A stretch of 57,897 bases of DNA from Candidatus Faecimonas intestinavium (GCA_018716045.1 DVKL01000013.1:1-57897); one strand, 5' to 3'. Shown: positions 11,394 through 45,419, counted from the stretch's first letter. Translations and numbers: made by a program. The notes: generated by a model not told the origin, from the letters alone.

Positions 11394-11489
11394 CCTCTTT
11401 ATTTTCTCTTATTATTGTATCATACTTTGTCGTTTTACAATATGCATATTTTTATAGCTTTACACCTATACTAAAATTGGGTGATTCAC

Positions 11490-12071
11490 ATGAGTTTAGT
11501 TCCTGTTGTTGTTGATAAGGAGATTAATGGCGAACGCAGTTATGACATTTTTTCTAGATTATTGAAAGAGCGTATCGTTTTTATCAGTGGAGAAATTAAT
11601 GATTCTTTAGCAAATACTGTTGTTGCTTCTTTACTTTATTTAGATTCCATCAATCATGATGATATTTCTATTTATATTAATTCTCCTGGGGGAAGTGTTT
11701 CTGCTGGTTTTGCCATTTACGATACTATGCAATTTGTTGCTAGTGATGTTTCTACAATTTGTATAGGTATGGCTGCTAGCATGGGTGCTTTCTTACTTTC
11801 TAGTGGGACTCCAGGTAAAAGGTATTCTTTACCAAATGCTGATATTATGATTCATCAGCCATTAGGTGGTGCTGAGGGACAAGCTAGTGATATTAAAATT
11901 GCCGCTGATAGAATTATTTTACTACGGAAACGGTTAAATAAAATTTTAGCTAAAAATACCAAAAATTCTTTACGTAAAATAGAAAAAGATACTGAAAGAG
12001 ACTATTACTTAGATACAGAGGAAGCTGTTTTATATGGATTAATCGATAAAGTAATAAAAAATAGAACTTAA
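11490..12071 (+). CDS. clpP: ATP-dependent Clp protease proteolytic subunit
   Basis: [19 protein letters not shown] (catalytic Ser) and MIHQP motifs. ATG 11490 preferred over the GTG at 11481. Confidence 0.95.
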
Positions 12072-12090
12072 TATTGAAGTTCTATTTTTT
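12061..12090. terminator. bidirectional terminator between convergent clpP and whiA
   Basis: 9-bp stem ATAGAACTT/AAGTTCTAT (12061-12069 / 12077-12085) flanked by an A-run and a T-run. It overlaps the clpP stop. Confidence 0.7.
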
Positions 12091-13020
12091 GTCTAAATTT
12101 TTAAATCTGGTAGCTAGTTCTTTAATTTTACGAAATCTATGGTTTAACCCCGATTTTGTTATAGGGTTTCCTGTCTCTATTGTAATAATCTCACTCAATT
12201 CTTTTAAAGAAGCTTCTGGATATTTTTTTCTATATTCCAAGGCTTCTTGGGTTTTATCATCTAATAAACTCGTACCTAAATTTTCTTCAATAATTGTAAT
12301 ATCATCTAACTGAGCAGTCGCTGTTGCAACTACTTTATCCATATTAGCCTGCTCACAATTATTCAAACGATTTGCTTGGTTTTTTTTATTGCGATAAATT
12401 CTTTGATTTTCAAAATATAAAACTGCATTATTTGCTTTGATAATTTTTAAATAGTCACTGATTTTATCTGCTTCTTTAATATATAGCATATAGCCTTTAT
12501 CTCTTGTGAGTATTTTTACATTTAAATCAAATAAATTTAATAGTTTTTGTACAAAAACTGCCTCTGTAGATTCTTCTATTAATAATTCCATATGATATCT
12601 TGATGTTTTAGGATCATTAATGCTTCCTGAGCTTAAAAACACTCCTTTTAAATAAGCTCTGATTTCTTCATTTGCACCTACTATATATTGTGGAGGTCTA
12701 TCTAGGTATACTCCTTTTTCATCTTGATAACCAATGTCTTCTAAAATAAAGTCCTTTTTTTCTTCTATCGTTAGAACAAATAAATCTTTTTTACTAAAGT
12801 TCAAACTGTCTTTTACTTCTTTTTTTATTTTTACTTCGTATAATGCTTCTAGTTGTTTTTCTATTCTTTCACAAATTAGGGGATTTTCTGTTGTTAGTTG
12901 AAACCCATTTAATGTATTGTGTCCATTATTTCTAATATATCCAGATAATTCAGCAATCATTTCGGACTTAGAACCAATATTTTTAGATATTTCTTCTTTA
13001 ATATCTGTTGTATAGGACAT
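12082..13020 (-). CDS. whiA: DNA-binding protein WhiA
   Basis: 312 aa. Degenerate LAGLIDADG region plus a C-terminal HTH, and conserved yvcK-whiA linkage. Confidence 0.85.
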   Translation of the reverse strand: MSYTTDIKEEISKNIGSKSEMIAELSGYIRNNGHNTLNGFQLTTENPLICERIEKQLEALYEVKIKKEVKDSLNFSKKDLFVLTIEEKKDFILEDIGYQDEKGVYLDRPPQYIVGANEEIRAYLKGVFLSSGSINDPKTSRYHMELLIEESTEAVFVQKLLNLFDLNVKILTRDKGYMLYIKEADKISDYLKIIKANNAVLYFENQRIYRNKKNQANRLNNCEQANMDKVVATATAQLDDITIIEENLGTSLLDDKTQEALEYRKKYPEASLKELSEIITIETGNPITKSGLNHRFRKIKELATRFKNLDKK

Positions 13021-13021
13021 T

Positions 13022-13975
13022 TTAATTCCTCATTAAATAGTTAAATACTAAAGCACTTAATTTTAAACTATTATGTCTTAAAGTATTATCTTCTATTGTG
13101 ATTAAATCTTCTTCTATCAGTTCTGTTCCAAGACTTTCAATTGCTGCATAATCGATCTTTACAGGATCTTTTTGTTCTGCTGTTGCATACTTTTCTGCTA
13201 TTTTTTTATCTATTTTCGTGTTACTTGCAACTACTACATTGATTTTTCTGAAATCTAAATATCTGTTTAATAATTTAACATGATCACTAACTGTAAAGTT
13301 GTCAGTTTCTCCTGGCTGAGTTACTGCATTACATAAATACATTAGTGGTGCTTTTGTTTCCTTTAATGCACTTTTTACTTCATTACAAATAACATTAGGT
13401 AAAATACTTGTATAAAGACTTCCCATACTAAAAATAATTAAGTCAGCTTCTGCTATGGCCTCAATTACTTCTGGCAATACTTTTGGTTCTTCTTTGTAAT
13501 ATATTTTTTGAAACTGATGATGTGCTTTTGTAATTTCTTCCTCTCCTTCAATAATATTTCCATCTCTATCAAGTCCCATTAGTGTTAACGAAGAATCTTC
13601 AGAAATTGGTAAAACTGTATGTTTAACATCAAACAATTTACATAAAGATGCGATAGATTCTTTTAATGATCCTGTAATATCTAACATTGCTGTTAGTATT
13701 AGATTACCAACTGCGTGTCCATTTAAGTCACTAGATGTATTAAAACGATATTCTACCATTTTTTTAATTGGATCATCTATTTCTGATAAAGCAGTAATTA
13801 CCTTTCTGATATCTCCAACTGCAGGGGTATTAAATTCTTTCCTTAGTTTACCAGTCGACCTACCATTATCTGATACTGTAATGACAGCTGTAATGTCTAC
13901 CGGGAAATCTTTTAACCCTTTTAAAAGATAGGAGATTCCAGTTCCTCCTCCAAAAACAACAACTTTTTTATACAT
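13022..13975 (-). CDS. yvcK: YvcK-family gluconeogenesis/cell-shape factor (CofD-like)
   Basis: VVVFGGGTG and VSDNGRSTG motifs. Start set at ATG 13975 (GAGGAGG SD). Confidence 0.85.
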   Translation of the reverse strand: MYKKVVVFGGGTGISYLLKGLKDFPVDITAVITVSDNGRSTGKLRKEFNTPAVGDIRKVITALSEIDDPIKKMVEYRFNTSSDLNGHAVGNLILTAMLDITGSLKESIASLCKLFDVKHTVLPISEDSSLTLMGLDRDGNIIEGEEEITKAHHQFQKIYYKEEPKVLPEVIEAIAEADLIIFSMGSLYTSILPNVICNEVKSALKETKAPLMYLCNAVTQPGETDNFTVSDHVKLLNRYLDFRKINVVVASNTKIDKKIAEKYATAEQKDPVKIDYAAIESLGTELIEEDLITIEDNTLRHNSLKLSALVFNYLMRN

Positions 13976-13988
13976 TTTTTCCTCCTCA

Positions 13989-14774
13989 TTATACATTATA
14001 TAACTCTTTTTGATTAGTTTTAGTACTTTTTATAAAAATTATGATTCCAGAAACTATAAAAACTAGAGATACTAATTGGGCCATTTTTAACGGTCCTAAC
14101 ATTAAAGAGTCTGTTCTCATAGCCTCTATAATAAATCTAATAATCCCATACCAAATCAGATAAAAACTTGTTAATTGTCCTATTTTTAAATATTTATATT
14201 GACGTATTATTAACATTGCTAGGAAACCAAAGAGACACCATACAGATTCATAAAAGAATGTGGGCTGTCGATACTCTCCTAAAATATACATTCCATCAAT
14301 TATAAATTGTGGTATGCCAAGTGATTTTAGATGTGCTGCTGTAGTGATTGGTCCGTATGCTTCACTATTGAAAAAGTTTCCCCATCTTCCAATTGCTTGA
14401 GCAATAATTAGTCCTACTACGATAATATCTAGTATTTTCCATAAATTCACTTCATGCTTTTTGCAATAATAAATAATAAATAGCAGTCCGGCAATAATCC
14501 CACCATGGATTGCTAATCCACCGTTCCATATTTGGAAAATTTCCACAGGGTTATCTAGATAGTAAGAAAAATTGAAAAGGACATAATAAAGCCTTGCTCC
14601 AATGATTCCTATGATAATAGTATTAAAGGTAAGATTTACTAAAAAGTCTTCCTCAATTCCTCTTTTTTTTGCTTCCTTATAAATCAAAAAGCAAGCAACT
14701 AGCATTCCGATAAAAATAAATATTGAATACCAGTATATTTGAATTGGTCCTAAATCTAGAGCTACTTTTTCCAT
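13989..14774 (-). CDS. lgt: prolipoprotein diacylglyceryl transferase
   Basis: Polytopic membrane protein with GARLYYV, GGLAIHGG and GRWGNFFN motifs. Confidence 0.9.
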   Translation of the reverse strand: MEKVALDLGPIQIYWYSIFIFIGMLVACFLIYKEAKKRGIEEDFLVNLTFNTIIIGIIGARLYYVLFNFSYYLDNPVEIFQIWNGGLAIHGGIIAGLLFIIYYCKKHEVNLWKILDIIVVGLIIAQAIGRWGNFFNSEAYGPITTAAHLKSLGIPQFIIDGMYILGEYRQPTFFYESVWCLFGFLAMLIIRQYKYLKIGQLTSFYLIWYGIIRFIIEAMRTDSLMLGPLKMAQLVSLVFIVSGIIIFIKSTKTNQKELYNV

Positions 14775-26525: not shown

Positions 26526-29033
26526 TTAATTTTGCCCTTTTTGATTTCTTTTATATGATTTTACCATTCTATAAACCTGTCTATCATTATGACTGCTTAA
26601 GCAAGATGGTACATATTCATGATTACTGTTTAACTCTTGTAATATTTTTTTTACTTCTTCTCCTGCTTCATCTGGGTTATATCGTTGTTCTTGTATTCTA
26701 TGTAATGTTTCTAATAAGTAGGTTCCTTCTAATGTCATTGAATTTGTTTCTATTTTACTTAATTCTGTCTTATTAGGAATGTAATAAGTAGATGTTGGCT
26801 CTTTTTGATTTAAAATATCATAAATTCTATGGGCTGTTGGTTTAGGAATTTTTGATAATATCTCACATGTGTTATTATGATTTCTTTCTATTAATTCTTC
26901 TTGATTTGGTATTGTAGATTTATAAATGAATGGAATTTTTCCTGCTTCTAAACGACTTGATATTTTTTTTGATAAATGACTAGAAATTAAATCCTTCATA
27001 CTGCCTTGAAAATACTCATTATTTTCTGTTTCTGCATTTATTTGTAATAGTCTAAGCCAATTTGCCATTTCTTTTAGTTCAGGATATTTTCTATATTGTT
27101 CTTGGTCACTTTCACTGAAATAGTTTTGTATTAAGATATTCGCAGGAGTAATTTCACCGTGATATAATTCATTATCGTTACCAATTCCTGTTTGAAAAGA
27201 ATATGTAGGATAGATTCTTGTAGTATCTAATTTAGGAACCTGTTCAGATCCTTCTTTTATATCATTGAAAAAGTCTGAATTCTCATTTACAATTCTTGTT
27301 GTATCTAATACATGAACCCCTATTTTTCTACTGCCATCCATTTGATATTCTATTGAAAATGCATAAGGCTCTAAGCCTTCCATTTGGAATGTTCTAATTG
27401 TATCATTTGGTATAAATTCAGGATAATTACGATTTCTATTTTGTGCAACACCTGTGTCTAAAGCATATTGATAGGTTTGTTCTTTATCTATTCTATTTTG
27501 TTCAGATTTAGGCGTACTCTTAGTTTTAGTTATAGGATGAATATAATTTATTTCATTAATATCTTGTAATACTTGATTTGTATTTTGATATCCTTTACCT
27601 TTTATATACTCTCTAAACTCTTCTAATCTTTGATTATACTCCATTAATTCTCTCGATGTTAATCTTGCTCCTTGTTTGATAAATTGTTTTAATATTTCTT
27701 TATAATAACTTGGTTCTATATAATCTTTCTTTTGATTTAGTAGTTTTAGTTTATAGTTTTTAATAAATTGATCTAGAATATATAATGTGACATGTTTTCT
27801 TTCAGTAATCCTTACTTTTTTTCTGCCTTTTCCTTCTTTTATTTTTATAGCTTGTCTCGCATTTTTAAACTCTCCAATTTCTAATAATTTTTTAATATAT
27901 TCATAATTTCTATCATCATTTAAAAGAACTTGTAAAATATCAAAATATGCTCTAGTATCTTCATCTTCTATATAAATTAGAGGTCTAATATCTTCAATTG
28001 CTGTCTCTAAGTGTTTTAAGAATCTTTTTTCTGTATCTTTAGCAGATGTATCACTTTTTCCTATTTGATTTCTTTTGGTTTTAATTACCTGTTTAGCTAA
28101 TGTTATCATTTCATCTAGTTGAAACCTTGGTAGAGTTTTCATTTCTTTTAATAGTATTTTTACTTCTTCTGGTAGTCCATTTTGTAGGCTAGATATTAAA
28201 GATATGTTGTATTTTCCGTTATCTATATCCTGTAAAAATTTTTGATATCTTTCTTCAATTTCATTTGTTGGTATTATGAATTCTCTACTCTCTAATAATT
28301 CTTCTGTAGTTATTTCTAATCTATCTACTTTTGATAATTCTATACTTTCTACTTCTTCTAGTTCTTGTAGAAGTTTTATCATTGTTTTACTTCGATTTGC
28401 ACGATTGATGATTTCTTTTAGTTTTTCTTCATAAGGTTGATACATTTCTTTCGTTGGAGGCATTGTTTTAGACCAAGGCATCAAGTATTTTCTCGTTGGA
28501 TTTTTCTTCTCTGCTTCCATTTCTTGCATATTTTCCGTTGTAGATAATTCTATATCTAATAGCTCTGCTACATCCTCTAAATATCTAAAGGCTAATTCTC
28601 TTAATAGATCAATTCTGTCTCTATGCACTTTTGAAGTTAGATATGTATCAAATAATAACTTGGTTTCTCTATCTAACCAATAATTACTTTCTTCAATATT
28701 TTCAATTAATAATTGTTTTTGACTTTTTGTATCTGTTACTGTGTTATATGCCTTCTTACGTAACTGAAGAAATTTTTGATACGTAAGTTCTAGTCTCTTA
28801 TTCGTAGCATTCTGTTCAGCAACTAATTCTCTTTTTCCTGTTGCGGCATATTTCCTTTTTGCAGATGTTGCTTTTCTTTTTCTGTTATTTAATTCTTTAC
28901 CAATTAATGATAATGTTTCTTTCGTTATCTTTACTCCTAAGATGTTTTCAATTTCTTCTACTGTTTCTACTCTGTCTAATAATTCAATTGATAGCTTTAC
29001 GATTTCTTTTTGTCCTAATTTCTTCTTTTCCAT
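26526..29033 (-). CDS. 835-aa protein: long helical K/E-rich N-terminal region plus a C-terminal RNB (RNase II/R)-like domain that appears catalytically inactive
   Basis: AFSIEYQMDGSRKIGVHVLDTTRIV parallels DDAxSVE...GVHIADVSxxV. IPFIYKSTIPNQEELIER parallels VPFIYRxHExPxxEKL. The terminal TYLLETLHR parallels RRYxDLxVHR. The DxDD and RRY catalytic residues are missing. Confidence 0.45.
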   Translation of the reverse strand: MEKKKLGQKEIVKLSIELLDRVETVEEIENILGVKITKETLSLIGKELNNRKRKATSAKRKYAATGKRELVAEQNATNKRLELTYQKFLQLRKKAYNTVTDTKSQKQLLIENIEESNYWLDRETKLLFDTYLTSKVHRDRIDLLRELAFRYLEDVAELLDIELSTTENMQEMEAEKKNPTRKYLMPWSKTMPPTKEMYQPYEEKLKEIINRANRSKTMIKLLQELEEVESIELSKVDRLEITTEELLESREFIIPTNEIEERYQKFLQDIDNGKYNISLISSLQNGLPEEVKILLKEMKTLPRFQLDEMITLAKQVIKTKRNQIGKSDTSAKDTEKRFLKHLETAIEDIRPLIYIEDEDTRAYFDILQVLLNDDRNYEYIKKLLEIGEFKNARQAIKIKEGKGRKKVRITERKHVTLYILDQFIKNYKLKLLNQKKDYIEPSYYKEILKQFIKQGARLTSRELMEYNQRLEEFREYIKGKGYQNTNQVLQDINEINYIHPITKTKSTPKSEQNRIDKEQTYQYALDTGVAQNRNRNYPEFIPNDTIRTFQMEGLEPYAFSIEYQMDGSRKIGVHVLDTTRIVNENSDFFNDIKEGSEQVPKLDTTRIYPTYSFQTGIGNDNELYHGEITPANILIQNYFSESDQEQYRKYPELKEMANWLRLLQINAETENNEYFQGSMKDLISSHLSKKISSRLEAGKIPFIYKSTIPNQEELIERNHNNTCEILSKIPKPTAHRIYDILNQKEPTSTYYIPNKTELSKIETNSMTLEGTYLLETLHRIQEQRYNPDEAGEEVKKILQELNSNHEYVPSCLSSHNDRQVYRMVKSYKRNQKGQN

Positions 29034-29201
29034 AAACTATAGTCCTTTACTTAAAATTTATCTATATAAAACATCTCTGTTTGTTTTTAAGCACACTAGT
29101 TTCTTTTGACTTTATCATACTCTTTTATTTGTTTATTTACAATCTTTTATTTTCTTTATATTTATGGTATAATAATAAGCCTTAAAGCGAGGAGATATAT
29201 T

Positions 29202-29933
29202 ATGGTTCCTATTTACATTAATGATAAAGAGTATTTTATTTATCCTAAAACTGATTATTTGGATGCTGGTGCTAGCGGTAAATGTTACAAAGTTTGTGAT
29301 GATGACCGTATCTTAACAGTAAAACTATATTTAAGTGAGTCTGCTTTAAGTGGTGAAGAAGTCTTTTTCCCTGATGAAGAAACCCTAGAAAAGTTAATTC
29401 AATTGTCACCTTATACCAGTCCTATTTTATTAAGCAATTATCTGGTAAGAGATGGTAAGGGAAACTATATTGGGTGTGCTAGAGACTATATAGAAGCATC
29501 TTCTCCTAATGCTACAGAAGCAGTTTTTCAACTTCCTAAAGAAAAAGCATTAGAACATTTTCAGAAAATCGAAGAAAAAATTCCAATTTTTGATGAAAAT
29601 GGTATTTTGCTTGATGATTGGAATTCTTATAATATTATGCTTGGTAGAGTGGCGAACGGTGATGAAAAATTATATGTTTTTGATGACAGTAGTTATAGCC
29701 TTTCTTCTCATTATGGACAATCTAATCATCGTGAATTTACTCATTTAATTGAAGATATGATTGAAGAATATTTGATTATATATGGTCTAGAACGAGTTAG
29801 ACCTTATGTTGTTGATAAATTAAGGGCATCTTATACTCCTGTACATTTTTTTGAAGATATTAGTAATCATTCTAATACTTTAGGAGAAGGAGTTTTACAA
29901 TATGCTAAAAAGATGAAAGATAGATATTATTAA
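29202..29933 (+). CDS. small protein-kinase-like fold protein (243 aa)
   Basis: GASGKCYKV glycine loop, VKLY lysine, DDWNSYNIM catalytic-loop-like and VFDDSS DFG-like motifs. GAGGAG SD before ATG 29202 and TGgTATAAT at about 29165. The track TTG start was rejected. Confidence 0.5.
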   Translation: MVPIYINDKEYFIYPKTDYLDAGASGKCYKVCDDDRILTVKLYLSESALSGEEVFFPDEETLEKLIQLSPYTSPILLSNYLVRDGKGNYIGCARDYIEASSPNATEAVFQLPKEKALEHFQKIEEKIPIFDENGILLDDWNSYNIMLGRVANGDEKLYVFDDSSYSLSSHYGQSNHREFTHLIEDMIEEYLIIYGLERVRPYVVDKLRASYTPVHFFEDISNHSNTLGEGVLQYAKKMKDRYY

Positions 29934-36842: not shown

Positions 36843-37941
36843 TTATCTTTTTTGTTTTAAATTTGCTTCAATAAACAAATCTATATCTCCATCTAATACT
36901 TTGTTAACATTGCTAGTTTCAATATTTGTTCTATGATCTTTCACCATAGAATAAGGATGAAGAACATAACTTCTAATTTGAGATCCAAAATTGATATTTG
37001 CTTGATCTCCTTTTATTTCATTTAATGCTTGTTCCTGTTGTTCTAGTTTTCTAATTAAAAGCTTGTTTTTTAAAACTTTTAATGCTTGTTCTTTGTTTTG
37101 GATTTGACTTCTTTCGTTTTGACAAGTAACAACAATTTTTGTTGGTAGATGCGTTATTCTAACTGCAGAGTCTGTGGTGTTTACTCCTTGTCCACCGGCA
37201 CCGGTCGAACGATAAACGTCTATTTTTAAATCTTTTTCATCTATTTCTATATCATTATCTTGTTCTATTTCTGGTGTTATTTCTACTGATGCAAATGATG
37301 TATGACGTCTATTGTTAGAATCAAAGGGAGAAAGTCTAACTAATCTATGAACTCCTTTTTCATTTTTTAGATAACCATAAGCATTTGTCCCTTTCACTCG
37401 GATGGAAACATTTTTGATGCCTGCTTCTTCTCCATCCTGATAATCTAATACTTCTATTTTATATTTTTTCTTTTCACACCATCTTGTATACATACGATAT
37501 AACATCATAGCCCAGTCGCAGGACTCAGTACCGCCAGCACCTGGATGAATCTCCAAAATACAGTCATTTTTATCATATGGCCCATCCAGAAGAAGAATAA
37601 AGCTCAATTCTTCTACTTTTTGTTTTATTAATACAGTTTCTTGTTCCAATTCTTGTCTATTTTTTTCATCTATTTCCAATTCTAACAAATTAACTAACTC
37701 TAAATTATCATTTGTCTGTTGTAATAAGTTTTCTATACTTTCTACTACTTCTTTTTCTGTATTTAATTCTTTAATGATTTTTTCAGCAGTTGTTCTATCA
37801 TTCCAAAAGTTTATATCATTTGTTTTTTCTTCTAAAGTCTTAACTTGCTCCTTTTTGCTATCAATGTCAAAGTGACCTCCATAGTTCTTTTAATTCTTTA
37901 TTACTTTTATTTAATGATTCTTTTATTTCTTTTAATTCCAT
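36843..37941 (-). CDS. prfB: peptide chain release factor 2, requiring a programmed +1 ribosomal frameshift at CTT TGA C (37872-37866)
   Basis: ORF0 MELKEIKESLNKSNKELKELWRSL ends at in-frame TGA 37869-37867 and is preceded by an internal GGAGG. The +1 frame continues DIDSKKEQVK... into track ORF 36843-37688 with no stop. SPF and GGQ motifs are present. Total 365 aa. Confidence 0.92.
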
Positions 37942-38133: not shown

Positions 38134-38150
38134 AGGAGCCAAAAGGCTCC
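38134..38150. terminator. GC-rich hairpin GGAGCC-aaaa-GGCTCC flanked by a T-run (plus strand), immediately after the NADAR stop
   Basis: Perfect 6-bp stem. T6 follows on the plus strand. On the minus strand it follows the operon stop and is followed by a U-rich UAUAUCUAUUU. Confidence 0.5.
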
Positions 38151-38154
38151 TTTT

Positions 38155-38640
38155 TTATTTTAATAATTCATCTCGTAATTTCATCCACAATTTACCTAAG
38201 TGATTTTCTCCAGTTCTATCTTTTCCCCATCCCCAGAAATTATCTTTAGGTGAATCTTCAACAATTATATAGTCTTTCGTTTGTAATAGTTTTTGTTTGA
38301 CATATGGGTTTTGCTGTAATTTTTTTCTTAAAAGTTCTTCCATAATTGTTAATTTTACTTCTTGCCAATCACTTCTTACTTTATCTTTATTAGCAAAGGC
38401 TATTTTTTGAGCTTCATGAGCTGAATGACTTTTTTTTATTTCTTCCGCTATTTCTGGGGCTGATTTCAAAAATTTAGCGGTCTGATAGGCCTCTTCTAGT
38501 GATGCATATAAATATCCATCCCATTCCACTTTAAAAGAACTGAAGTTATCTAGGCAATAAAATTCTCTAGGATAAAATCCTATTACATCATTCATTTTTT
38601 CACTTAACCAAGTATCACGATATTGTTCTAATTTAATCAT
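38155..38640 (-). CDS. NADAR (YbiA/DUF1768) domain protein, 161 aa
   Basis: FYCLDNFSSF, ASLEEAYQTAKF and VEDSPKDNFWGWGKDRTGENHLGKLWM motifs match the NADAR signature. Start at ATG 38640 (AGGAG SD), not 38757. Confidence 0.8.
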   Translation of the reverse strand: MIKLEQYRDTWLSEKMNDVIGFYPREFYCLDNFSSFKVEWDGYLYASLEEAYQTAKFLKSAPEIAEEIKKSHSAHEAQKIAFANKDKVRSDWQEVKLTIMEELLRKKLQQNPYVKQKLLQTKDYIIVEDSPKDNFWGWGKDRTGENHLGKLWMKLRDELLK

Positions 38641-38651
38641 AAAATTCTCCT

Positions 38652-39671
38652 TTATACTTTCTCTTCTAAAATCCATTCTTGCAAATATTTTATTTCCGAA
38701 TGGCAATATTCGCACTTTCCCTTTGTAACATCTATTGATGCTCCACAATTTGCACATCTAATAATATTTTCTTTATTTCCTAAATTTAATAAGGTATTTT
38801 TATTTTGTTTCATAGTGTATGTCTGAGTTATTATCTTAGATTTTAATTTTTTGTTTTCATAAGTAACTATCCTTAAATCTGCCGTTACATCAACATATAA
38901 TACTCCATTTACTTCATAGTCTTTAAAATTGGTATAATCTAAAATATCATAGTCTATTATATTTTCCTTACTATAATATTTTTTCCTTATCTCATAATTT
39001 AGGTTATTAAAAAATGTTTTTTTGTTAATTTTAGTTCTTTGCCAAAATTCTATTTGTTTTTTATTTTCTTTATCTTTAAATTTCTTTATAGGAGATAAGA
39101 TTATATATGCATCTGCAATATAGAAAAAATAATATAAAATTAGAGAAAGAATAATACCATATATAAATATTTTTATAATATCATAGTTATTAAAAGTCCT
39201 TGAAGTAAGTTTTATAAAAATAAAGCTTATAATAATGCTAATAATAATATCTACAATTAGTGTTATTACTCTATAGATATTACTCTTTAGTACTCTATCA
39301 TAATGATATTTACTACCTAAGTCTTTCTCACTGTAATCCATATTATAATAAGTTTTACAATAAGGACAACCATCAATAAAATCCTTTAGTGGAGATTTCA
39401 TTCCACAATTAGGACATTCGTATTCTTCATTTATATTATTATCCATAATATATGTGTACTCTATTCTTGAATCAAATAACTTTTCTTTATGTGCTAATTT
39501 ATTATCTATATAATATTCTTTTTGGCAGCGGATTCCTCGCTCTATATTATCATTAACGGAATCATTAGTATTTCTTTCTAAGATTTTGTTTCCAACAATA
39601 TATTTCGTTCTTATATTGATTCCATATCTTTTTAATTTTTCTTTTTGATATGTTTCTGATATTAAGGCCAT
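38652..39671 (-). CDS. membrane protein with two zinc ribbons (CPNC..CPYC and CANC..CEYC) flanking 2 TM helices and a cytoplasmic beta-rich domain
   Basis: 339 aa, motifs read directly. AGAGGAA SD. Starts 6 nt after the upstream stop. Confidence 0.6.
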   Translation of the reverse strand: MALISETYQKEKLKRYGINIRTKYIVGNKILERNTNDSVNDNIERGIRCQKEYYIDNKLAHKEKLFDSRIEYTYIMDNNINEEYECPNCGMKSPLKDFIDGCPYCKTYYNMDYSEKDLGSKYHYDRVLKSNIYRVITLIVDIIISIIISFIFIKLTSRTFNNYDIIKIFIYGIILSLILYYFFYIADAYIILSPIKKFKDKENKKQIEFWQRTKINKKTFFNNLNYEIRKKYYSKENIIDYDILDYTNFKDYEVNGVLYVDVTADLRIVTYENKKLKSKIITQTYTMKQNKNTLLNLGNKENIIRCANCGASIDVTKGKCEYCHSEIKYLQEWILEEKV

Positions 39672-39677
39672 GTTCCT

Positions 39678-40031
39678 CTAGTTATTATTGTTATTGTTGT
39701 TATTATTGTTATTATTGTTGGAAGATGAACCACCGCTATAACTATAACTAGATGACGGTGTATAATGTGGAATCACACGTAAATAGTTTTCCTTCATAGT
39801 AAATCCATCAATTGAGGAATTAATACTTTTAGCAGCAATTACTGCTGTGACTGTAGTTCCAAGACATAAAGAAACTTTATCTGTCCCTCCAACGACAGTA
39901 CCCTCTGGGTTGGAAGACAAGAAGTAATATATTTGATTTAATTCTTCCATAGAAAAGTCGTAATAATTAGTTAAATCAATGCATCTTTTTTTTCTAATTA
40001 ATTCTTCATATGTTTCTGGTTCTTTATCCAT
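39678..40031 (-). CDS. 117-aa hypothetical protein with a Ser/Tyr/Gly-rich C-terminus ending in 13 consecutive Asn
   Basis: AAGGAG SD. The ATG overlaps the radical SAM stop (ATGGATAA). Sequence ...EGTVVGGTDKVSLCLGTTVTAVIAAK...HYTPSSSYSYSGGSSSN13. Confidence 0.6.
   Translation of the reverse strand: MDKEPETYEELIRKKRCIDLTNYYDFSMEELNQIYYFLSSNPEGTVVGGTDKVSLCLGTTVTAVIAAKSINSSIDGFTMKENYLRVIPHYTPSSSYSYSGGSSSNNNNNNNNNNNNN
39681..39719 (-). repeat. (AAY)13 trinucleotide tract encoding poly-Asn
   Basis: Plus strand gtt att att gtt att gtt gtt att att gtt att att gtt, directly before the stop codon. Confidence 0.9.
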
Positions 40032-41775
40032 TTTGATTCTCCTTATCTAAATAATAAAACTCTATATTTTGAAATGGTAGATTTATTGCTTGTATATGGT
40101 AATAGGCATTATTTTTTTGTTTCATATAATGATAATCTCTTAATGCTGTTGTTGTAAAAAATATGTTATTAGCATTTGTAAGAGATAAGTATTTTGAAAA
40201 TTTCTTTAGCCAACTACTAATATCATAAGAGTAGTATCCTTCTTTGTCGCTTGCTATTTCATCTAATACACCTTTATAAACCAACTCTGTTGCAATATGT
40301 CTTTGTTTTTCCCTATTCTCATCTCCGTAAGTCACTAAATTACCACTTAAAAGCATAATATATAGTGCATTATTTTCTGGATATTCACACTCTGCACTTA
40401 TTAACTCTTTTTTCATATAAATTATTACTTTATTCTCTGGCGTTAAATATATAAAATCCCTGTAGGATTTTTTTATTTGGGATGCTAATTGGTATTCTTT
40501 TTCATTCACTTTTAAAATAAAACTATTTTCGTCATATATATATTTTAACTTTTGATCTTTTTCAATTATATCTTCTAGAGATGGATAACTTTCTGTAGAT
40601 TTTGTTGGTCTAAAATTCTCTTTATTTTCTATTCTCATTTTTGTTATATATTCATAGACAAATTCTTCATTGTTTATGTCTTTTGGATAGTTTTTATCTT
40701 TGTATAATTCTTGTTGTAGTTTGCATGTATAACTTTTGCTACTGTTATAAATATTTTTTACAAATGGGCACCCCGTTTTGCACAAGTATAAATATCCACA
40801 GTTTTTACAATCCTCATTAAACGGTAGTTTGTTATGATTTATAAATATTTTATTAGATGCCGTTTTTAATATTTCTTCTACAGTATTTTTATATATATTA
40901 CCATAATAATAATCTTTTTGTTTCTGTCCTCTTACGCATGAGTAGATATCTCCGTTTCTTTCTAATAAAAAGAACTTTTCTCCACAATTATTACAATTAG
41001 TACAATATTCTGGTCCAAACTCATTAAACCAAGCTCCATTCACTCCGCTGTCTAAATTTGTTCCATCAAATTCTTGATGCATTCGTTTATAGAAATTCAC
41101 TTGTTCTTCTTCTGTCATTGGATGTAATAATCCATTTGAATTGTAAGAAAAACCTATCATAAAATTAAAATCATTCATATCTAAACATGTATTTTTGTCT
41201 AGGAACTTGATATCTTTTATAATTTCTTCGATATGTTGGTAATGTTCTTTAAAGATTGTTGACGATACTTTCTTTTTATTTGGTATATCTTTTAGTAGTT
41301 CTATATTTTCCAGTATTTTATCCAGTGTTTTTCGGTTCCCTTTTGTTACTCTATATTCGTTATGAAGGGAAAATGGTAAGTCTAGACTCCCAGATATGGA
41401 TACATTAAATTCTTTTATTGTATCTATGTGTTTTTTTAAATCATATAAGTTGGTTTTGATATGGGGAGTACCTACTTTGAAGCCGGCATCTGTAATAAGT
41501 TGCTTGTTTTTTTGATAATACTGACTAATATACTCAATGATATCATGAAAATCTTGCTTACTTAAAGTGGTTACTTCTCCTCCGTGTAAAGATATATTAA
41601 ATGGTATAACATTCGATTCCTTTAGTTTATTAATGGTGTATTCTAGAGTCCCTAACGTTGTATATTTTGTATATTCCTCTTTTGTATTATCTTCTAAATA
41701 GCAATATTTGCATTCCATGTTACAAGCCATGGTTGGGACATACAACAAATGTATATATTTATACTCTTCCTTCAC
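40024..41775 (-). CDS. radical SAM/SPASM-domain enzyme with an unassigned C-terminal extension of about 220 aa (583-593 aa)
   Basis: CNMECKYC (CxxxCxxC) near the N-terminus. SPASM-like CTNCNNCG...SCVRG...CKNCGYLYLCKTGCPF. GTG 41775 has a GGGGGA SD. The alternative GTG 41805 overlaps the upstream gene by 19 nt. Confidence 0.75.
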   Translation of the reverse strand: MKEEYKYIHLLYVPTMACNMECKYCYLEDNTKEEYTKYTTLGTLEYTINKLKESNVIPFNISLHGGEVTTLSKQDFHDIIEYISQYYQKNKQLITDAGFKVGTPHIKTNLYDLKKHIDTIKEFNVSISGSLDLPFSLHNEYRVTKGNRKTLDKILENIELLKDIPNKKKVSSTIFKEHYQHIEEIIKDIKFLDKNTCLDMNDFNFMIGFSYNSNGLLHPMTEEEQVNFYKRMHQEFDGTNLDSGVNGAWFNEFGPEYCTNCNNCGEKFFLLERNGDIYSCVRGQKQKDYYYGNIYKNTVEEILKTASNKIFINHNKLPFNEDCKNCGYLYLCKTGCPFVKNIYNSSKSYTCKLQQELYKDKNYPKDINNEEFVYEYITKMRIENKENFRPTKSTESYPSLEDIIEKDQKLKYIYDENSFILKVNEKEYQLASQIKKSYRDFIYLTPENKVIIYMKKELISAECEYPENNALYIMLLSGNLVTYGDENREKQRHIATELVYKGVLDEIASDKEGYYSYDISSWLKKFSKYLSLTNANNIFFTTTALRDYHYMKQKNNAYYHIQAINLPFQNIEFYYLDKENQNG

Positions 41776-41786
41776 TACTATTCCCC

Positions 41787-43097
41787 CTAATAATAATTGT
41801 TCCACGTATTTCCTGTATCACTATATTCATCATAGTAATATATTGATGTAGGACTATTTTTGAAAGCTCTTGAATTTATGTATGTCTGTTTTGGTACTCT
41901 TATTGATAAAAGACTAGAGCATTCTCTAAATGCTGATGAGCCAATTTCTTCAAGATTACTATTTTCTGTTATATTTACTTCTGATAATCGAGAAGCCCCA
42001 TAAAAGGCATGTCCACCTATTCTAGTAACTGAATCTGGTATATCTATTGATATTAGTGAACTACATTCTTCAAAGGTATTTCCTCTAATTTCTTGTAGGT
42101 TTTTAGATAGCTCAATATTTTCTAGTGAATATGCATTATAGAAAGTTTCTCCTCCCATATATGTTAAAGTATCTGGTAATTTAACTGACCTAAGTGAGGA
42201 ACAATTATAAAATGCACTTCCCCCAAGATATTCTAAGCTATTAGGAATGTTTATCTTTGTTAAACTAATATCATTTTTGAAGGCCTTTCCTCTAATCTCT
42301 GTAATACTATTAGGTAAGTTTACCTCTTCTAAAAATGGCATATTGGCAAATACATTTCCACGAATGCTTACAATTTCTTCGCCCTTATATGTTTCTGGTA
42401 TATTCACTGTTTTAAAATTAGTTAGACCGAATGTATAGAATCTAACTCCATAACCATTATCCATCTTTTCATAAAATGTAATTGGTCTAGCAAATATAAT
42501 TAGTGGCAATATTATTGCTGCTACAATACCTACTATAAATATTGGTTTTGTTTTGTTTGGAACAAATGTTGTTTGCACATTCATTATAATATTAGTTATC
42601 TTTTCTGATGGACGTTCTTGAATTTGTTTTTTTAAGTACTTTAACATATTATAATTTCTTGTGTATTTAAATAAAATTATTAATAAAACTAAACCTATTA
42701 AATATGTTAGTAATGGAAAATGAAAGAAAATCAGTATTATATATATAAACAATAATAACACAAATAAAATATTTAATATTTGTTTTCTTTTTAATAGGGA
42801 TGCAGGTATTACTTTGCTATTTTTATCTATTTGAAGTTTTGATAATTGTCTATTAATAAATTCTTCTAATAATTGTGATTCAGTTAGATTGTACATAGAA
42901 TCAAAATTAGCTTTAGTAACGATTTTTTTCTGGATAGGTGGATCTACTATTTCAGTATTTTGTGTTGAAGTGTTGCATGGTTGACCGCAATTTCCACAGA
43001 ATTTGTCGGTTACTTTAATATTTCCTCCACAATTTTTACATTTTAGATTTGTATCGGTTGTTGATTGATTGTTTACTGCAGACTGCTGGTTTATCAT
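41787..43097 (-). CDS. zinc-ribbon / 3-TM / BspA-type leucine-rich-repeat (LRR_5-like) protein
   Basis: N-terminal CKNCGG...CGNCGQ and three hydrophobic helices. About 8 repeats of the IPxSVTxIGxxAFxxCxxL type. AAAGGAG SD. Confidence 0.7.
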   Translation of the reverse strand: MINQQSAVNNQSTTDTNLKCKNCGGNIKVTDKFCGNCGQPCNTSTQNTEIVDPPIQKKIVTKANFDSMYNLTESQLLEEFINRQLSKLQIDKNSKVIPASLLKRKQILNILFVLLLFIYIILIFFHFPLLTYLIGLVLLIILFKYTRNYNMLKYLKKQIQERPSEKITNIIMNVQTTFVPNKTKPIFIVGIVAAIILPLIIFARPITFYEKMDNGYGVRFYTFGLTNFKTVNIPETYKGEEIVSIRGNVFANMPFLEEVNLPNSITEIRGKAFKNDISLTKINIPNSLEYLGGSAFYNCSSLRSVKLPDTLTYMGGETFYNAYSLENIELSKNLQEIRGNTFEECSSLISIDIPDSVTRIGGHAFYGASRLSEVNITENSNLEEIGSSAFRECSSLLSIRVPKQTYINSRAFKNSPTSIYYYDEYSDTGNTWNNYY

Positions 43098-43205: not shown

Positions 43206-44255
43206 TTATTTTAAACTTTTTAATTCTCCCATACGTGAAGTAGGTATAAATCCTGGCTCTGATGCAATTACATCTGGAATTCTATTTACTATTGTCGCAC
43301 AAGTAAGTTCTACTGTACTTGGCTTTTCAATTACCATCGTAGTATTTGGTTCACCATAAACTGTCCATTCATTTCTATCAAATTCATCTTTATTATATAC
43401 TTTTCCAATACACTCTGTTTCAAGAGTGATTCCTTCTTTTGTCTCAGTAGTAACAACAGCGCTCATTCCTGTTGCCATCCCTGCTTTTACAGTCATTCCT
43501 AATGTAGATGATTCAATGTCGTAATCATTGAATTGTGGTACACATTTTTGTCTTTGGCTTACTACGGTTAATCCTAATTTGTCACATAGCCAACCATTCA
43601 CATTCCACATGTATGATGGAGCATATTTACCACTTTCAATTACTTTCTGTCTTTCTTCATCTGATATTTCATCTGCACTAGCTACTTGAGAGGCGAACTC
43701 TTCTTTGGTCAATCCTGCTCCATGGGCTTTTGCTAAAGCTATTCCATAATCTTCTACATTATAGGAAGAACTACCTTTAATCTTTGTAATATTATGGCTT
43801 GCTCCTGTTAATGTTGTAATTAAATTTCCCCAGAATGCATCTTGATATCCACTACCAGTTATAGTACAGTTATTTTCTTTTGCAAGGTTATCAATTTCGC
43901 TAGTTAATGTTGGGTTAGAATTCATCGGATAAAATGCTTCCTCACAGGTAGTAATTGCATTTACTCCACATTTGGCACAAGTAAGTAGTGCTTCCTTAAC
44001 ATCTGCAAGTAAACTCATTGTTGTAACAATAACACAATCTGGTTTTAATTTTTTTAATAGTTCTTCTGCATGGTCTACATTTTCAACTATTACTCCAGTA
44101 TTTTCTCCCTTCATTATTTGTCCAATATCTTGGCCAATAACATCAGGATTAATATCTACAGCCCCTACGATTTCTCCACCATTTTCTATAACATAGCGCA
44201 TGGTGTATACGCTCATTTTTCCTACTCCATATTGAAAAATTCTTAATCCTTTCAT
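43206..44255 (-). CDS. NAD(P)-binding oxidoreductase, DapB-N-terminal / 2,4-diaminopentanoate dehydrogenase-like
   Basis: RIFQYGVGKMS Rossmann start, 349 aa. The overall resemblance is recalled and not searched. Confidence 0.5.
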   Translation of the reverse strand: MKGLRIFQYGVGKMSVYTMRYVIENGGEIVGAVDINPDVIGQDIGQIMKGENTGVIVENVDHAEELLKKLKPDCVIVTTMSLLADVKEALLTCAKCGVNAITTCEEAFYPMNSNPTLTSEIDNLAKENNCTITGSGYQDAFWGNLITTLTGASHNITKIKGSSSYNVEDYGIALAKAHGAGLTKEEFASQVASADEISDEERQKVIESGKYAPSYMWNVNGWLCDKLGLTVVSQRQKCVPQFNDYDIESSTLGMTVKAGMATGMSAVVTTETKEGITLETECIGKVYNKDEFDRNEWTVYGEPNTTMVIEKPSTVELTCATIVNRIPDVIASEPGFIPTSRMGELKSLK

Positions 44256-44352: not shown

Positions 44353-44949
44353 TTATTTTCTTTTTTTATTTATATATACTTTTATTAAATCTGGGTCATG
44401 TTGGTTTTTTGGCAGGCTATCTAATGAAAAAAACTTCATGTCTTTTGATTCATCGTCCCAGATTAACTCTCCAGAATATTTTTTGACTAGATATAATGCC
44501 GTATTATTTATCACAACATCTCCATTTGGATATTCTTTTTTTCTAGAAAGTCCTGAGATAATATCTAATAATTCTAAATCTTCCTCTTTTACTTCTAAAT
44601 TAGTTTCTTCTTTGATTTCTCTAATTATAACTTCTTGAAATCTTTCTCCAAGTTCTTGACATCCACCTGGTAATCCCCATCTATCATTATCTTTTCTACG
44701 TTGTAATAAAATCTCCCCTTGCAAATTTTCAATAATAGCTGCTGATCCATCCTGTAAAATTGGAATTTTATGTCGTAATTCCCCCATGCACATTCTTATA
44801 AATACAGGATAACCTATCACATTACTTAATTTTTTTATTTCTTCTGTGTTTAATCCATTTATTATGTTTTTCAATTTTTCATATGGCAAATTTCTTTTTT
44901 CTGCTTCGGTTAATTTTTTTATTTCTTCTATTATTTTTGTATTGTCCAT
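44353..44949 (-). CDS. NUDIX hydrolase (198 aa)
   Basis: Nudix box GGCQELGERFQEVIIREIKEETNL. Confidence 0.85.
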   Translation of the reverse strand: MDNTKIIEEIKKLTEAEKRNLPYEKLKNIINGLNTEEIKKLSNVIGYPVFIRMCMGELRHKIPILQDGSAAIIENLQGEILLQRRKDNDRWGLPGGCQELGERFQEVIIREIKEETNLEVKEEDLELLDIISGLSRKKEYPNGDVVINNTALYLVKKYSGELIWDDESKDMKFFSLDSLPKNQHDPDLIKVYINKKRK

Positions 44950-45011
44950 TATTTTTCATCTCCTGGGCTTGATTTTTAGATATTTCATAAATTATTATAG
45001 TTCTTTTTTAT

Positions 45012-45419
45012 TTAAATTAAATTTAAATCTTCTAACATTTTCTTGTGATCATAGGCTAACTCCATTGTCTTAATTTCTTCTGGCTTAAACCATCTAACTT
45101 CATCACATTCACTTATTGGTGTTGGTATTCCTTTTATGATTTTGCAAGTATGGGGTAAACAAATAAATGTTTTAGTTGGATGTCTTCCTATTTTATCATA
45201 GTATTTTCCAACAAATTTTATATTTCCAAGTTCCACACCTATTTCTTCTATCGCTTCTCTTTTTAACGCATCTTCTACTTCTTCTCCCCATTCTATAGCG
45301 CCAGCTATTAATCCCCAATAACCTGTATATGCGCCTGCAGTTCTGTGCATTAATAATATTTCTCCATTTTCATTTGTAATAATTCCATCTACTCCAACAT
45401 ACGGATGATCTTGCTTCAT
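45012..45419 (-). CDS. NUDIX hydrolase (135 aa)
   Basis: Nudix box GAIEWGEEVEDALKREAIEEIGV. Confidence 0.85.
   Translation of the reverse strand: MKQDHPYVGVDGIITNENGEILLMHRTAGAYTGYWGLIAGAIEWGEEVEDALKREAIEEIGVELGNIKFVGKYYDKIGRHPTKTFICLPHTCKIIKGIPTPISECDEVRWFKPEEIKTMELAYDHKKMLEDLNLI

Follow-up and report, generated by a model that had tools for sequence, protein, structure and literature searches.

Much new peptide chemistry comes from radical S-adenosylmethionine (SAM) enzymes with a SPASM domain that act as maturases, and their known substrates depend on Cys, aromatic, or specific motif residues. The anaerobic sulfatase-maturating enzyme (anSME; PDB 4K36-4K39) acts on sulfatases with a C/S-x-P-x-R motif, and in anSMEcpe, the Asp following the third auxiliary Cys (C276-D277) is the catalytic base. 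PqqE and MftC act on the small proteins PqqA and MftA with a chaperone (PqqD, MftB) that provides the recognition element (RRE) for RiPPs (peptides of ribosomal origin that are modified after translation); defined follow-up enzymes then complete the product, which is a cofactor. In the iterative RiPP systems, such as PoyD on Asn-rich cores, YydG/EpeE, GrrM/OscB, and PapB, one enzyme works on many equivalent C-terminal positions. Here, we analyzed a stretch of 57,897 nucleotides of DNA with ~29% GC from Candidatus Faecimonas intestinavium (GCA_018716045.1, DVKL01000013.1:1-57897), hereafter the window. Between positions 38155 and 43097, its minus strand encodes a leucine-rich repeat (LRR) membrane protein (g1), a radical SAM/SPASM enzyme (rSAM), a small protein ending in a poly-Asn tail (g3), a double zinc-ribbon membrane protein (g4), and a NADAR protein. 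With a probability of roughly 0.6, judged from sequence comparisons, rSAM and g3 would form a two-gene module in which the SPASM maturase modifies the Asn tail of the adjacent protein. To our knowledge, no substrate class described so far resembles a homopolymeric Asn core. In the literature searched, mostly outside subscription journals, no link of radical SAM/SPASM enzymes to poly-Asn substrates or tail fibres was found.

Compared with these systems, the window enzyme is built like anSME, with a radical SAM core, a full SPASM domain, a protein as the (here predicted) substrate, and no N-terminal RRE; the spacing of the eight auxiliary-cluster Cys is also almost identical in the two enzymes. 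However, the partner of anSME is a sulfatase, whereas here it is the Asn-tailed protein. The locus resembles the PqqE/PqqA and MftC/MftA pairs in that a SPASM enzyme lies beside a small gene with a conserved extreme C-terminus, and no exporter is required. It differs from them by the lack of an RRE, by follow-up genes that are not conserved, by the homopolymeric Asn core, and by a phage structural protein that would also be a target. The iterative RiPP enzymes provide the precedent for the action proposed here, and EpeE, PapB, and GrrM are included in the Foldseek and NCBIfam match lists for rSAM; nevertheless, the window system has no NHLP or Nif11 leader, its core contains neither Cys nor a conserved aromatic residue, and the family cutoffs were missed. 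In phages, the maturation of fibres, as in the P2/Mu-like and CJIE1-like modules, involves chaperones and autoproteolysis and is not known to use radical SAM chemistry. Unlike the phage modules described below, the window cassette is chromosomal, and no phage genes lie nearby. The PHROG cluster phrog_1802, named "radical SAM domain-containing protein", is matched by the window enzyme along its entire length, including the C-terminal domain, but it is an unannotated cluster with neither a function nor a substrate assigned and with no recognized link to Asn tails. The Asn-tailed proteins are not represented by any Pfam or NCBIfam model. What appears to be new in the system is the Asn substrate signature, the accessory domain, and the presence in phage tail-fibre modules, while the class of SPASM maturases is known.

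The pairing was examined by a profile-guided scan restricted to one genome per species, which provided 30 loci with full-length relatives of rSAM. The hosts were Bacilli and Clostridia bins, Archangium, Thiomargarita, Beggiatoa, Rhodoferax, Propionivibrio, Chitinilyticum, Maricurvus, Psychromonas, Campylobacter, and Helicobacter. An enzyme with the C-terminal domain adjoined exactly one open reading frame (ORF) with an Asn run of at least seven residues in 31/31 bacterial loci (given as L001-L028, L031-L034, and L037, with the truncated L029 and L036 left out), which span Firmicutes, Proteobacteria, and Myxococcota. In the loci of generic SPASM enzymes from the same scan, the number with Asn runs of at least seven residues was 0/48. 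When the five window proteins were compared with the related loci by tblastn, g3 was detectable in the Firmicutes-type loci. Three unrelated chromosomal contexts carried the LRR gene, rSAM, a gene for ~120 aa, and a gene for ~340 aa, with no NADAR gene. All five genes are syntenic within the window species (at least 98% identity), which is a prevalent gut bacterium, as variants of g4 with at least 98% identity were found in hundreds of assemblies. The initial annotation had regarded the five genes as one candidate system, to be refuted if they did not occur together outside this genome. The set of five was found in this species only, due to the absence of NADAR from all of the ~30 loci (0 of ~30), the patchy distribution of g4, and the absence of both g1 and g4 from the proteobacterial and phage versions; hence, the five-part system was abandoned, and what recurs in all the related loci found is the pair of rSAM and the Asn-tailed gene. 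The conserved core is these two genes.

The g3 gene (39678-40031, minus strand) encodes 117 aa, with a folded-looking N-terminal part of ~90 aa, a Ser/Gly/Tyr-rich linker, and the C-terminal poly-Asn tail, which is formed by 13 Asn codons in succession (39681-39719, minus strand) with the TAG stop directly after them. A six-frame scan for Asn runs of at least seven residues returned this tail as the sole such run in the window. Previously, the tail had been recorded as mere low complexity; its presence was confirmed, but it is not incidental, being the conserved, defining feature of the partner proteins. In the alignment of g3 with its Firmicutes-type counterparts, the tail is the best-conserved part (...GGSSS-N13-15-R). 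The small gene beside the proteobacterial and myxobacterial enzymes has a different N-terminal domain, yet its product ends in S/T-N9-15-G, sometimes ...NGNNG. Overall, the runs comprise N9-15 followed by zero or one residue (R or G), and a few end in NGNNG or GNNNG. In the window species, the last Asn is followed directly by the stop codon, but the proteins of related genera have an Arg as their final residue. The run length differs between strains with 99% identity: the window and L155 have N13, while an additional AAT codon makes it N14 in L086 and L152-L154.

The Asn codons of g3 are a mixture of AAC and AAT. An Asn run with mixed AAC/AAT codons was also kept in Archangium (69% GC), a Rhodocyclaceae metagenome-assembled genome (MAG; 71%), Chitinilyticum (61%), and Rhodoferax (59%). 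Because the tail is retained with mixed codons in genomes of 57-71% GC, selection acts on the protein, and the tail is not a by-product of AT-richness. Outside the tail, the partner proteins provided little to compare. No Pfam, NCBIfam, or PHROG family was assigned to g3, and g3 together with nine other Asn-tailed proteins had no Pfam or NCBIfam match at E up to 0.01-0.1, thus no NHLP or Nif11 leader. A comparison of N-terminal domains between Firmicutes and proteobacterial partners by hhalign did not establish homology (P = 0.0037, probability 9%), and no signal was obtained by hhalign between the partner proteins and either the phage Tfa-like chaperone or the C-termini of the H-fibres. Some copies of the cassette are imperfect. 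One MAG has a degenerate tail (L156 5638-5994), SSSNTNNNHNNNTHNHN; the LRR gene of one strain carries the nonsense codon Q160* (L152 2572-3882); and a "Clostridium sp." MAG contains the whole cassette in fragments (L033 6300-11050). These three cases may be sequencing errors or real pseudogenes.

The rSAM gene occupies 40024-41775 on the minus strand and encodes 583 aa. Its longest ORF begins at GTG 41805; however, the GTG at 41775 is favoured as the start by the N-termini of the homologues and by a GGGGGAA box 6 nt upstream. The enzyme matched Radical_SAM (PF04055) with an E-value of 3.3e-11 and 44.1 bits against a cutoff of 29.5, and the SPASM models PF13186 (25.1 bits, cutoff 21.5) and TIGR04085 (42.2 bits, cutoff 27). 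In an alignment of 12 diverse homologues, the CxxxCxxC motif (C18/C22/C25) is invariant, as are eight more Cys (258, 264, 280, 323, 326, 332, 336, and 351) and G275. Eight Cys in the SPASM pattern C-x9-15-G-x4-C...C-x2-C-x5-C-x3-C...C would be enough for two fully ligated auxiliary clusters, and no N-terminal RRE was found in the enzyme. Based on the motif and the SPASM Cys set, both present, the enzyme belongs to the broad class of radical SAM/SPASM maturases. Its AlphaFold2 (AF2) model had a mean confidence (pLDDT) of 87, and the top Foldseek matches of the model were anSME 4k36 (8e-16), CteB, SuiB, ChlB, and SkfB, all peptide or protein maturases.

At the family level, the best NCBIfam profiles all scored under their cutoffs, namely anSME (90.9/349.45), DynA (88.2/450), DarE (70.4/650), and PapB (70.2/340). 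With the generic SPASM domain model excepted, none of the 38 NCBIfam matches of rSAM reached its cutoff (0/38), those to AmcB, HxsB, GrrM/OscB, XyeB, and MftC included. In contrast, phrog_1802 was matched over the full length by the window enzyme (E 4.3e-42, residues 13-578 against profile positions 49-554 of 556), and it was also matched by the Archangium and Thiomargarita homologues and by the protein of the Campylobacter phage CAM-P21 (6e-142). More than 100 full-length relatives of rSAM with ~75% identity were found in gut Bacilli and Clostridia metagenome bins, in addition to ~10 more divergent full-length clusters with 29-49% identity.

The C-terminal ~220 aa of rSAM (residues ~362-583; 40024-40692, minus strand) form a beta-rich domain that is conserved across all branches in the alignments. 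Its signature motifs are YGDExRxKxxH and FFTTxxxRDxHYxKxxxNAYYHIQxxNLPF, and the invariant or nearly invariant residues are Y483, G484, K490, H493, T542, H549, N556, Y559, H560, and P567. An AF2 model of this domain alone had a pLDDT of 88 and a predicted TM-score (pTM) of 0.79. Foldseek with this domain provided nothing significant against PDB (best E 0.024, TM 0.3) or BFVD (best E 0.007 at TM 0.3), the profile search against PDB sequences returned nothing below E 0.5, and no Pfam or NCBIfam model covers the domain. The initial annotation had described this region as free of recognized motifs, and the absence of a match in Pfam, PDB, and BFVD agrees with it. Four proteins (P0236, P0198, P0237, and P0187) carry the conserved C-terminal motif of the enzyme in their last 65-100 residues behind unrelated N-termini, which are GIY-YIG-like in P0236 and a g1-like LRR in P0187. 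They may result from cassette decay or recombination, from the insertion of a mobile endonuclease, or from assembly chimeras.

Distant members of the enzyme family were also recovered from phages. Two loci without a long run, in C. jejuni 414 and in a Helicobacter bin, prompted a scan of viral contigs, which revealed 14 more full-length relatives with 33-36% identity. A further relative is encoded by the isolated Campylobacter phage CAM-P21 (L151; MW462221.2 26302-30189), and the phage and prophage data set comprises 17 loci (L030, L035, L088-L100, L134, and L151). In CAM-P21, the gene of the enzyme (phrog_1802), which occupies 28053-29810 of MW462221, is preceded by baseplate genes, the tail fibre gene (phrog_1162), and the gene for a 211-aa protein (phrog_10241), in this order, and is followed by the genes for a tail assembly chaperone (phrog_1158) and the tail sheath; the Asn-ended gene is the one annotated as tail fibre, and its product ends in ...APSGSTNNNNY. 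In 17/17 loci, one of the genes upstream of the enzyme, at a distance of one or two positions, has a product that terminates in S/T/G-N2-6, as in ...SSGNNF, ...SCNNNNN, ...SMGNNS, ...SCNNNNGG, and ...SSNNNNNNRG, and the run is borne either by the tail fibre that binds the receptor or by a small protein encoded nearby. Among the other 231 ORFs of these loci, seven have NN within their last eight residues. The CAM-P21 version of the enzyme was found on at least 1000 contigs. Since the pairing occurs in Firmicutes, in proteobacterial and myxobacterial loci, and in phages, the rule holds in three otherwise unrelated contexts.

The phrog_10241 protein is a Tfa-like chaperone needed for the function of the H-fibre (PMC7882524). 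As the phage enzyme is encoded between the H-fibre with this chaperone and the tail assembly chaperone, it looks like a fibre maturation factor. In the viral contigs L097 (2196-5978) and L100/L134 (2478-5970), the genes encode, in order, a 918-1000-aa fibre-like protein, a 93-108-aa protein ending in ...SNNNNNN(RG/LAGNV), a protein that is related to the Tfa-like chaperone but shorter (phrog_10241, E 3.6e-6), and the enzyme. This intermediate architecture resembles the window in its combination of a large binding protein with a small Asn-tailed protein. For the Campylobacter phages CP220 and CPt10, radical SAM genes were mentioned in a generic remark only (PMC2853527).

These observations are consistent with the following model. 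We infer that the C-terminal domain docks the partner protein and that the Asn tail threads into the radical SAM active site, where 5'-deoxyadenosyl radical chemistry would modify it, probably iteratively along the run, with the auxiliary clusters handling electrons. The conservation of the Asn core from 29% to 71% GC, together with an enzyme domain whose fold has no recognized match, would imply chemistry on Asn itself. The candidate outcomes are L-to-D epimerization, Asn C-alpha/C-beta cross-links, possibly between oligomer chains, and oxidation; the formation of sactionines, ranthionines, or cyclophanes is unlikely because the tail provides only Asn and the preceding Ser/Thr. In this genome and its Firmicutes relatives, the pair is translationally coupled to the surface LRR membrane protein and usually also to the double zinc-ribbon protein. 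The distant phage enzyme would have as its target the H-fibre that binds the receptor or a small protein associated with the fibre, again with a short Asn run at the end. The initial annotation had proposed the 117-aa protein as the rSAM substrate, with the membrane proteins as scaffold or exporter; the strict pairing across phyla and phages speaks for the core of that proposal, and the chemistry is predicted. A wider statement, namely that a C-terminal oligo- or poly-Asn tail marks proteins, phage fibres included, for an undescribed radical SAM modification by an enzyme family with a new docking domain, in a system now dispersed over Firmicutes, Proteobacteria, and Myxococcota, is tentative, with odds slightly short of even.

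If this wider statement is true, the modification would add a new factor to those that set phage fibre stability or host recognition, and in gut Firmicutes, the system would belong to an envelope apparatus that bears LRRs. Work to engineer CJIE1-like H-fibres into antibacterials is already under way, and their stability or host range could be influenced by a fibre modification that has been overlooked. The combination of an enzyme carrying the C-terminal domain with a neighbouring ORF ending in N(n) also provides a rule for genome mining, and the experimental entry is easy because only two genes are involved and the C-terminal peptide can be tracked by mass spectrometry.

Several points weigh against the modification of the tail. 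The Asn tail could serve in docking or regulation instead of being the modification site. No protease or exporter is consistently linked to the pair in the loci, S9 peptidases being restricted to L021 and an alpha/beta hydrolase to L028; the classical leader-core logic of RiPPs is thus not established. In addition, g3 lacks a signal peptide, whereas g1 has its LRR domain outside the cell. The phage branch, with its short runs (N2-6), appears to be tied to the long-tail branch through co-occurrence only. Finally, a CJIE1-like H-fibre produced together with its chaperone in P. aeruginosa or E. coli, which do not provide the enzyme, was functional and killed Campylobacter (PMC7882524); therefore, receptor binding as assayed there does not require the predicted phage modification.

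A different division of labour, in which the Asn-tailed protein is a scaffold, chaperone, or active-site plug and the enzyme modifies the LRR protein or the fibre body, is unlikely. In its favour, the partner carries, instead of a short leader, an N-terminal domain of considerable size that looks folded, the LRR gene of Firmicutes always lies directly upstream of the enzyme except in L016, and both the 1000-aa fibre-like protein and the small protein of L097 have Asn-rich ends. Nevertheless, the C-terminal Asn run is the only feature common to the partners, whose other domains appear unrelated, and in the Campylobacter phages, the run is carried by the fibre itself. Moreover, LRR and fibre genes are absent from the proteobacterial loci, and the C-termini of the g1 homologues are not conserved, although the ...GNTWNNYY end of g1 was suggestive; for this reason, g1 was rejected as a second substrate. 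The location of the run, which closes g3 with g4 starting 6 nt later, and its variation between N13 and N14 among strains would also fit a translational sensor instead of a modification site, with ribosomes stalling at scarce Asn-tRNA and tuning the coupled downstream gene. This explanation is very improbable due to the genes around the run: L022 has no same-strand gene after it, unrelated genes follow it in L019, L025, and L028, and in L031, the Asn-tailed gene is upstream of the enzyme. Furthermore, short runs end the phage tail fibres, and the run always terminates a conserved protein of 90-150 aa, not a short leader peptide.

The enzyme could instead be an ordinary anSME or another characterized SPASM maturase with an unlinked substrate and coincidental neighbours, given that anSME was the best match by both profile (TIGR03942, 8.5e-26) and structure (4k36, 8e-16). 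The profile score of 90.9 bits, however, is 26% of the family cutoff of 349.45, and the enzyme therefore does not fall cleanly into this family, a possibility that the initial annotation had set out as a check. The HMMER alignment to 4K37 places the anSME "YPCDFY" opposite "YsCvRgQ" of the present family; in place of the Asp that acts as the base in anSME, this family has V, P, or H behind the third auxiliary Cys and then an invariant R-x-Q. Considering also the additional conserved 220-aa domain, which is absent from anSME, and the strict link to Asn-tailed ORFs, such a coincidence is extremely improbable. The second hypothesis of the initial annotation was a five-gene defence or conflict module with an LRR sensor, a nucleotide or ADP-ribose-type adduct generated by rSAM, and NADAR as the reversing or immunity enzyme. 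In its favour, NADAR families include anti-phage members (NF053876, 79.6 bits; PADLOC PDC-M42C, E 1.2e-10), the N-terminus of the enzyme has a weak similarity to viperin, and the five genes stay together within the species. The 79.6 bits, however, compare with an NF053876 cutoff of 240, whereas the YbiA-type TIGR02464 was passed; the viperin matches cover only the generic first ~80 residues; and the full SPASM domain and the nearest structures, which are maturases, point to peptide substrates. PADLOC-DB v2 provided only weak partial matches (pVip, 24.7 bits, residues 25-106; PDC-M42C, 39.9 bits) and none for g3 or g4, and the assignment to defence was dropped. No DarT or ART domain was found by Pfam in the four neighbours of NADAR, and a defence-island context was likewise discarded because the neighbourhoods examined are of the housekeeping type (prfB, NUDIX, and YitT). 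With NADAR missing from all of the ~30 related loci as well, the defence hypothesis, like an NAD-related reading, was not sustained and is regarded as highly improbable.

Beside the predicted maturase and its Asn-tailed partner, the remaining genes of the block are accessory. The domain content described in the initial annotation was recovered, as LRR_5, Radical_SAM/SPASM, and NADAR were matched, while the zinc ribbons were weak and g3 had no family. The g1 gene (41787-43097, minus strand) encodes 436 aa and matched LRR_5 with an E-value of 1.2e-53, whereas the match of its N-terminal zinc ribbon was weak. According to hydropathy, g1 has three transmembrane (TM) segments, a hairpin pair and one more, and the N-terminal zinc ribbon is cytoplasmic; with the positive charges inside, the BspA-type LRR would face outward. 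An LRR_5 gene was found directly upstream of the enzyme in L001-L015, L017, L018, L032, and L037, but not in L016, and g1 was absent from all proteobacterial and phage loci. The g1 homologues are variable in length and at the N-terminus. The g4 gene (38652-39671, minus strand) encodes 339 aa, with CxxC...CxxC at residues 86-105, two TM segments at ~135-190, and a second CxxC...CxxC at 306-323. Its zinc-ribbon matches were weak, and none of the sources consulted gives it a meaningful name. As there are two TM segments, both zinc-ribbon halves would lie on the same side of the membrane, presumably the cytoplasmic one. The gene is present in L001-L012, L015, L017, L018, and L032, is absent in L013, L014, L016, L026, and L037, and was not found in any proteobacterial or phage version. 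The proteobacterial loci carry unrelated small membrane proteins instead of g1 and g4, and hhalign provided no homology between g4 and two of these partners (C5 and C8). As a weak assignment, g1 and g4 probably hold the modified protein at the membrane or make use of it there.

The NADAR gene (38155-38640, minus strand; 161 aa) starts with the ATG at 38640 behind an AAGGAG box, the longest ORF being 38155-38757. Its product matched PF08719 with an E-value of 1.8e-28 (100.3 bits, cutoff 35.1) and the YbiA-type TIGR02464 with 98.4 bits against 73.7. In the tblastn comparison, NADAR was detected in none of the ~30 related loci, and because it accompanies the cassette only in strains that are at least 98% identical, it is considered a species-level passenger. 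It is an unrelated YbiA-type gene outside the conserved module, and it is probably co-transcribed with it.

The ORF calls and the direct reading of the sequence confirmed the five minus-strand ORFs with the junctions and gaps that had been claimed. The TAG stop of g1 at 41789-41787 lies 11 nt ahead of GTG 41775 or, if the start is 41805, the two genes overlap by 19 nt. The sequence ATGGATAA at 40031-40024 is common to the g3 start and the rSAM stop, indicating translational coupling. The gap between g3 and g4 is 6 nt, and that between g4 and NADAR is 11 nt. Regarding the limits of the transcript, a GC-rich hairpin, AGGAGCC-TTTT-GGCTCCT (38134-38151, minus strand), is located 4 nt past the NADAR stop and was detected by the terminator scan on both strands; it is likely the end of the transcription unit. 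From ~43200 to 38134, the minus-strand scan returned no terminator-like site besides this hairpin, and because the sole such site follows NADAR, the five genes probably form one transcript here. Upstream, a weak minus-strand hairpin (43204-43188) with only two G-C pairs, followed by T7 (to 43181), ends the upstream gene but falls below the stricter criteria of the terminator scan. The extended -10 element TGcTATAAT (43149-43141, minus strand) is located 44 nt before the g1 ATG. In this AT-rich region, however, the number of promoter-like matches (42) is what chance predicts (41.7), thus promoter claims carry little weight and the extended -10 proves little. Accordingly, the bracketed transcription unit of the initial annotation was retained at its downstream end, whereas the upstream terminator and the -10 element did not reach the same standard.

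Some proteobacterial loci contain candidate follow-up enzymes beside the pair, none of which is conserved across loci. L021 has two peptidases of the S9 prolyl-oligopeptidase family (10325-14663), L028 has an alpha/beta hydrolase (10258-11190), L027 has a protein-glutamine gamma-glutamyltransferase (TGL; 10300-11799, minus strand), and L031 has a methyltransferase with weak similarity to PCMT (10563-11186). In the window, the cassette is preceded by a gene resembling the C-terminal domain of diaminopimelate (DAP) dehydrogenase (43206-44255) and by two adjacent NUDIX hydrolase genes (44353-45419, minus strand); this housekeeping-type flank is syntenic in all strains of the species. Downstream, prfB (36843-37941, minus strand) begins with the ATG at 37941 and contains a programmed +1 frameshift site at 37880-37866. 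After 24 codons, the sequence reads GGAGG TCA CTT TGA C, and the new frame continues to 36843, which is an ordinary and well-known feature of this gene.

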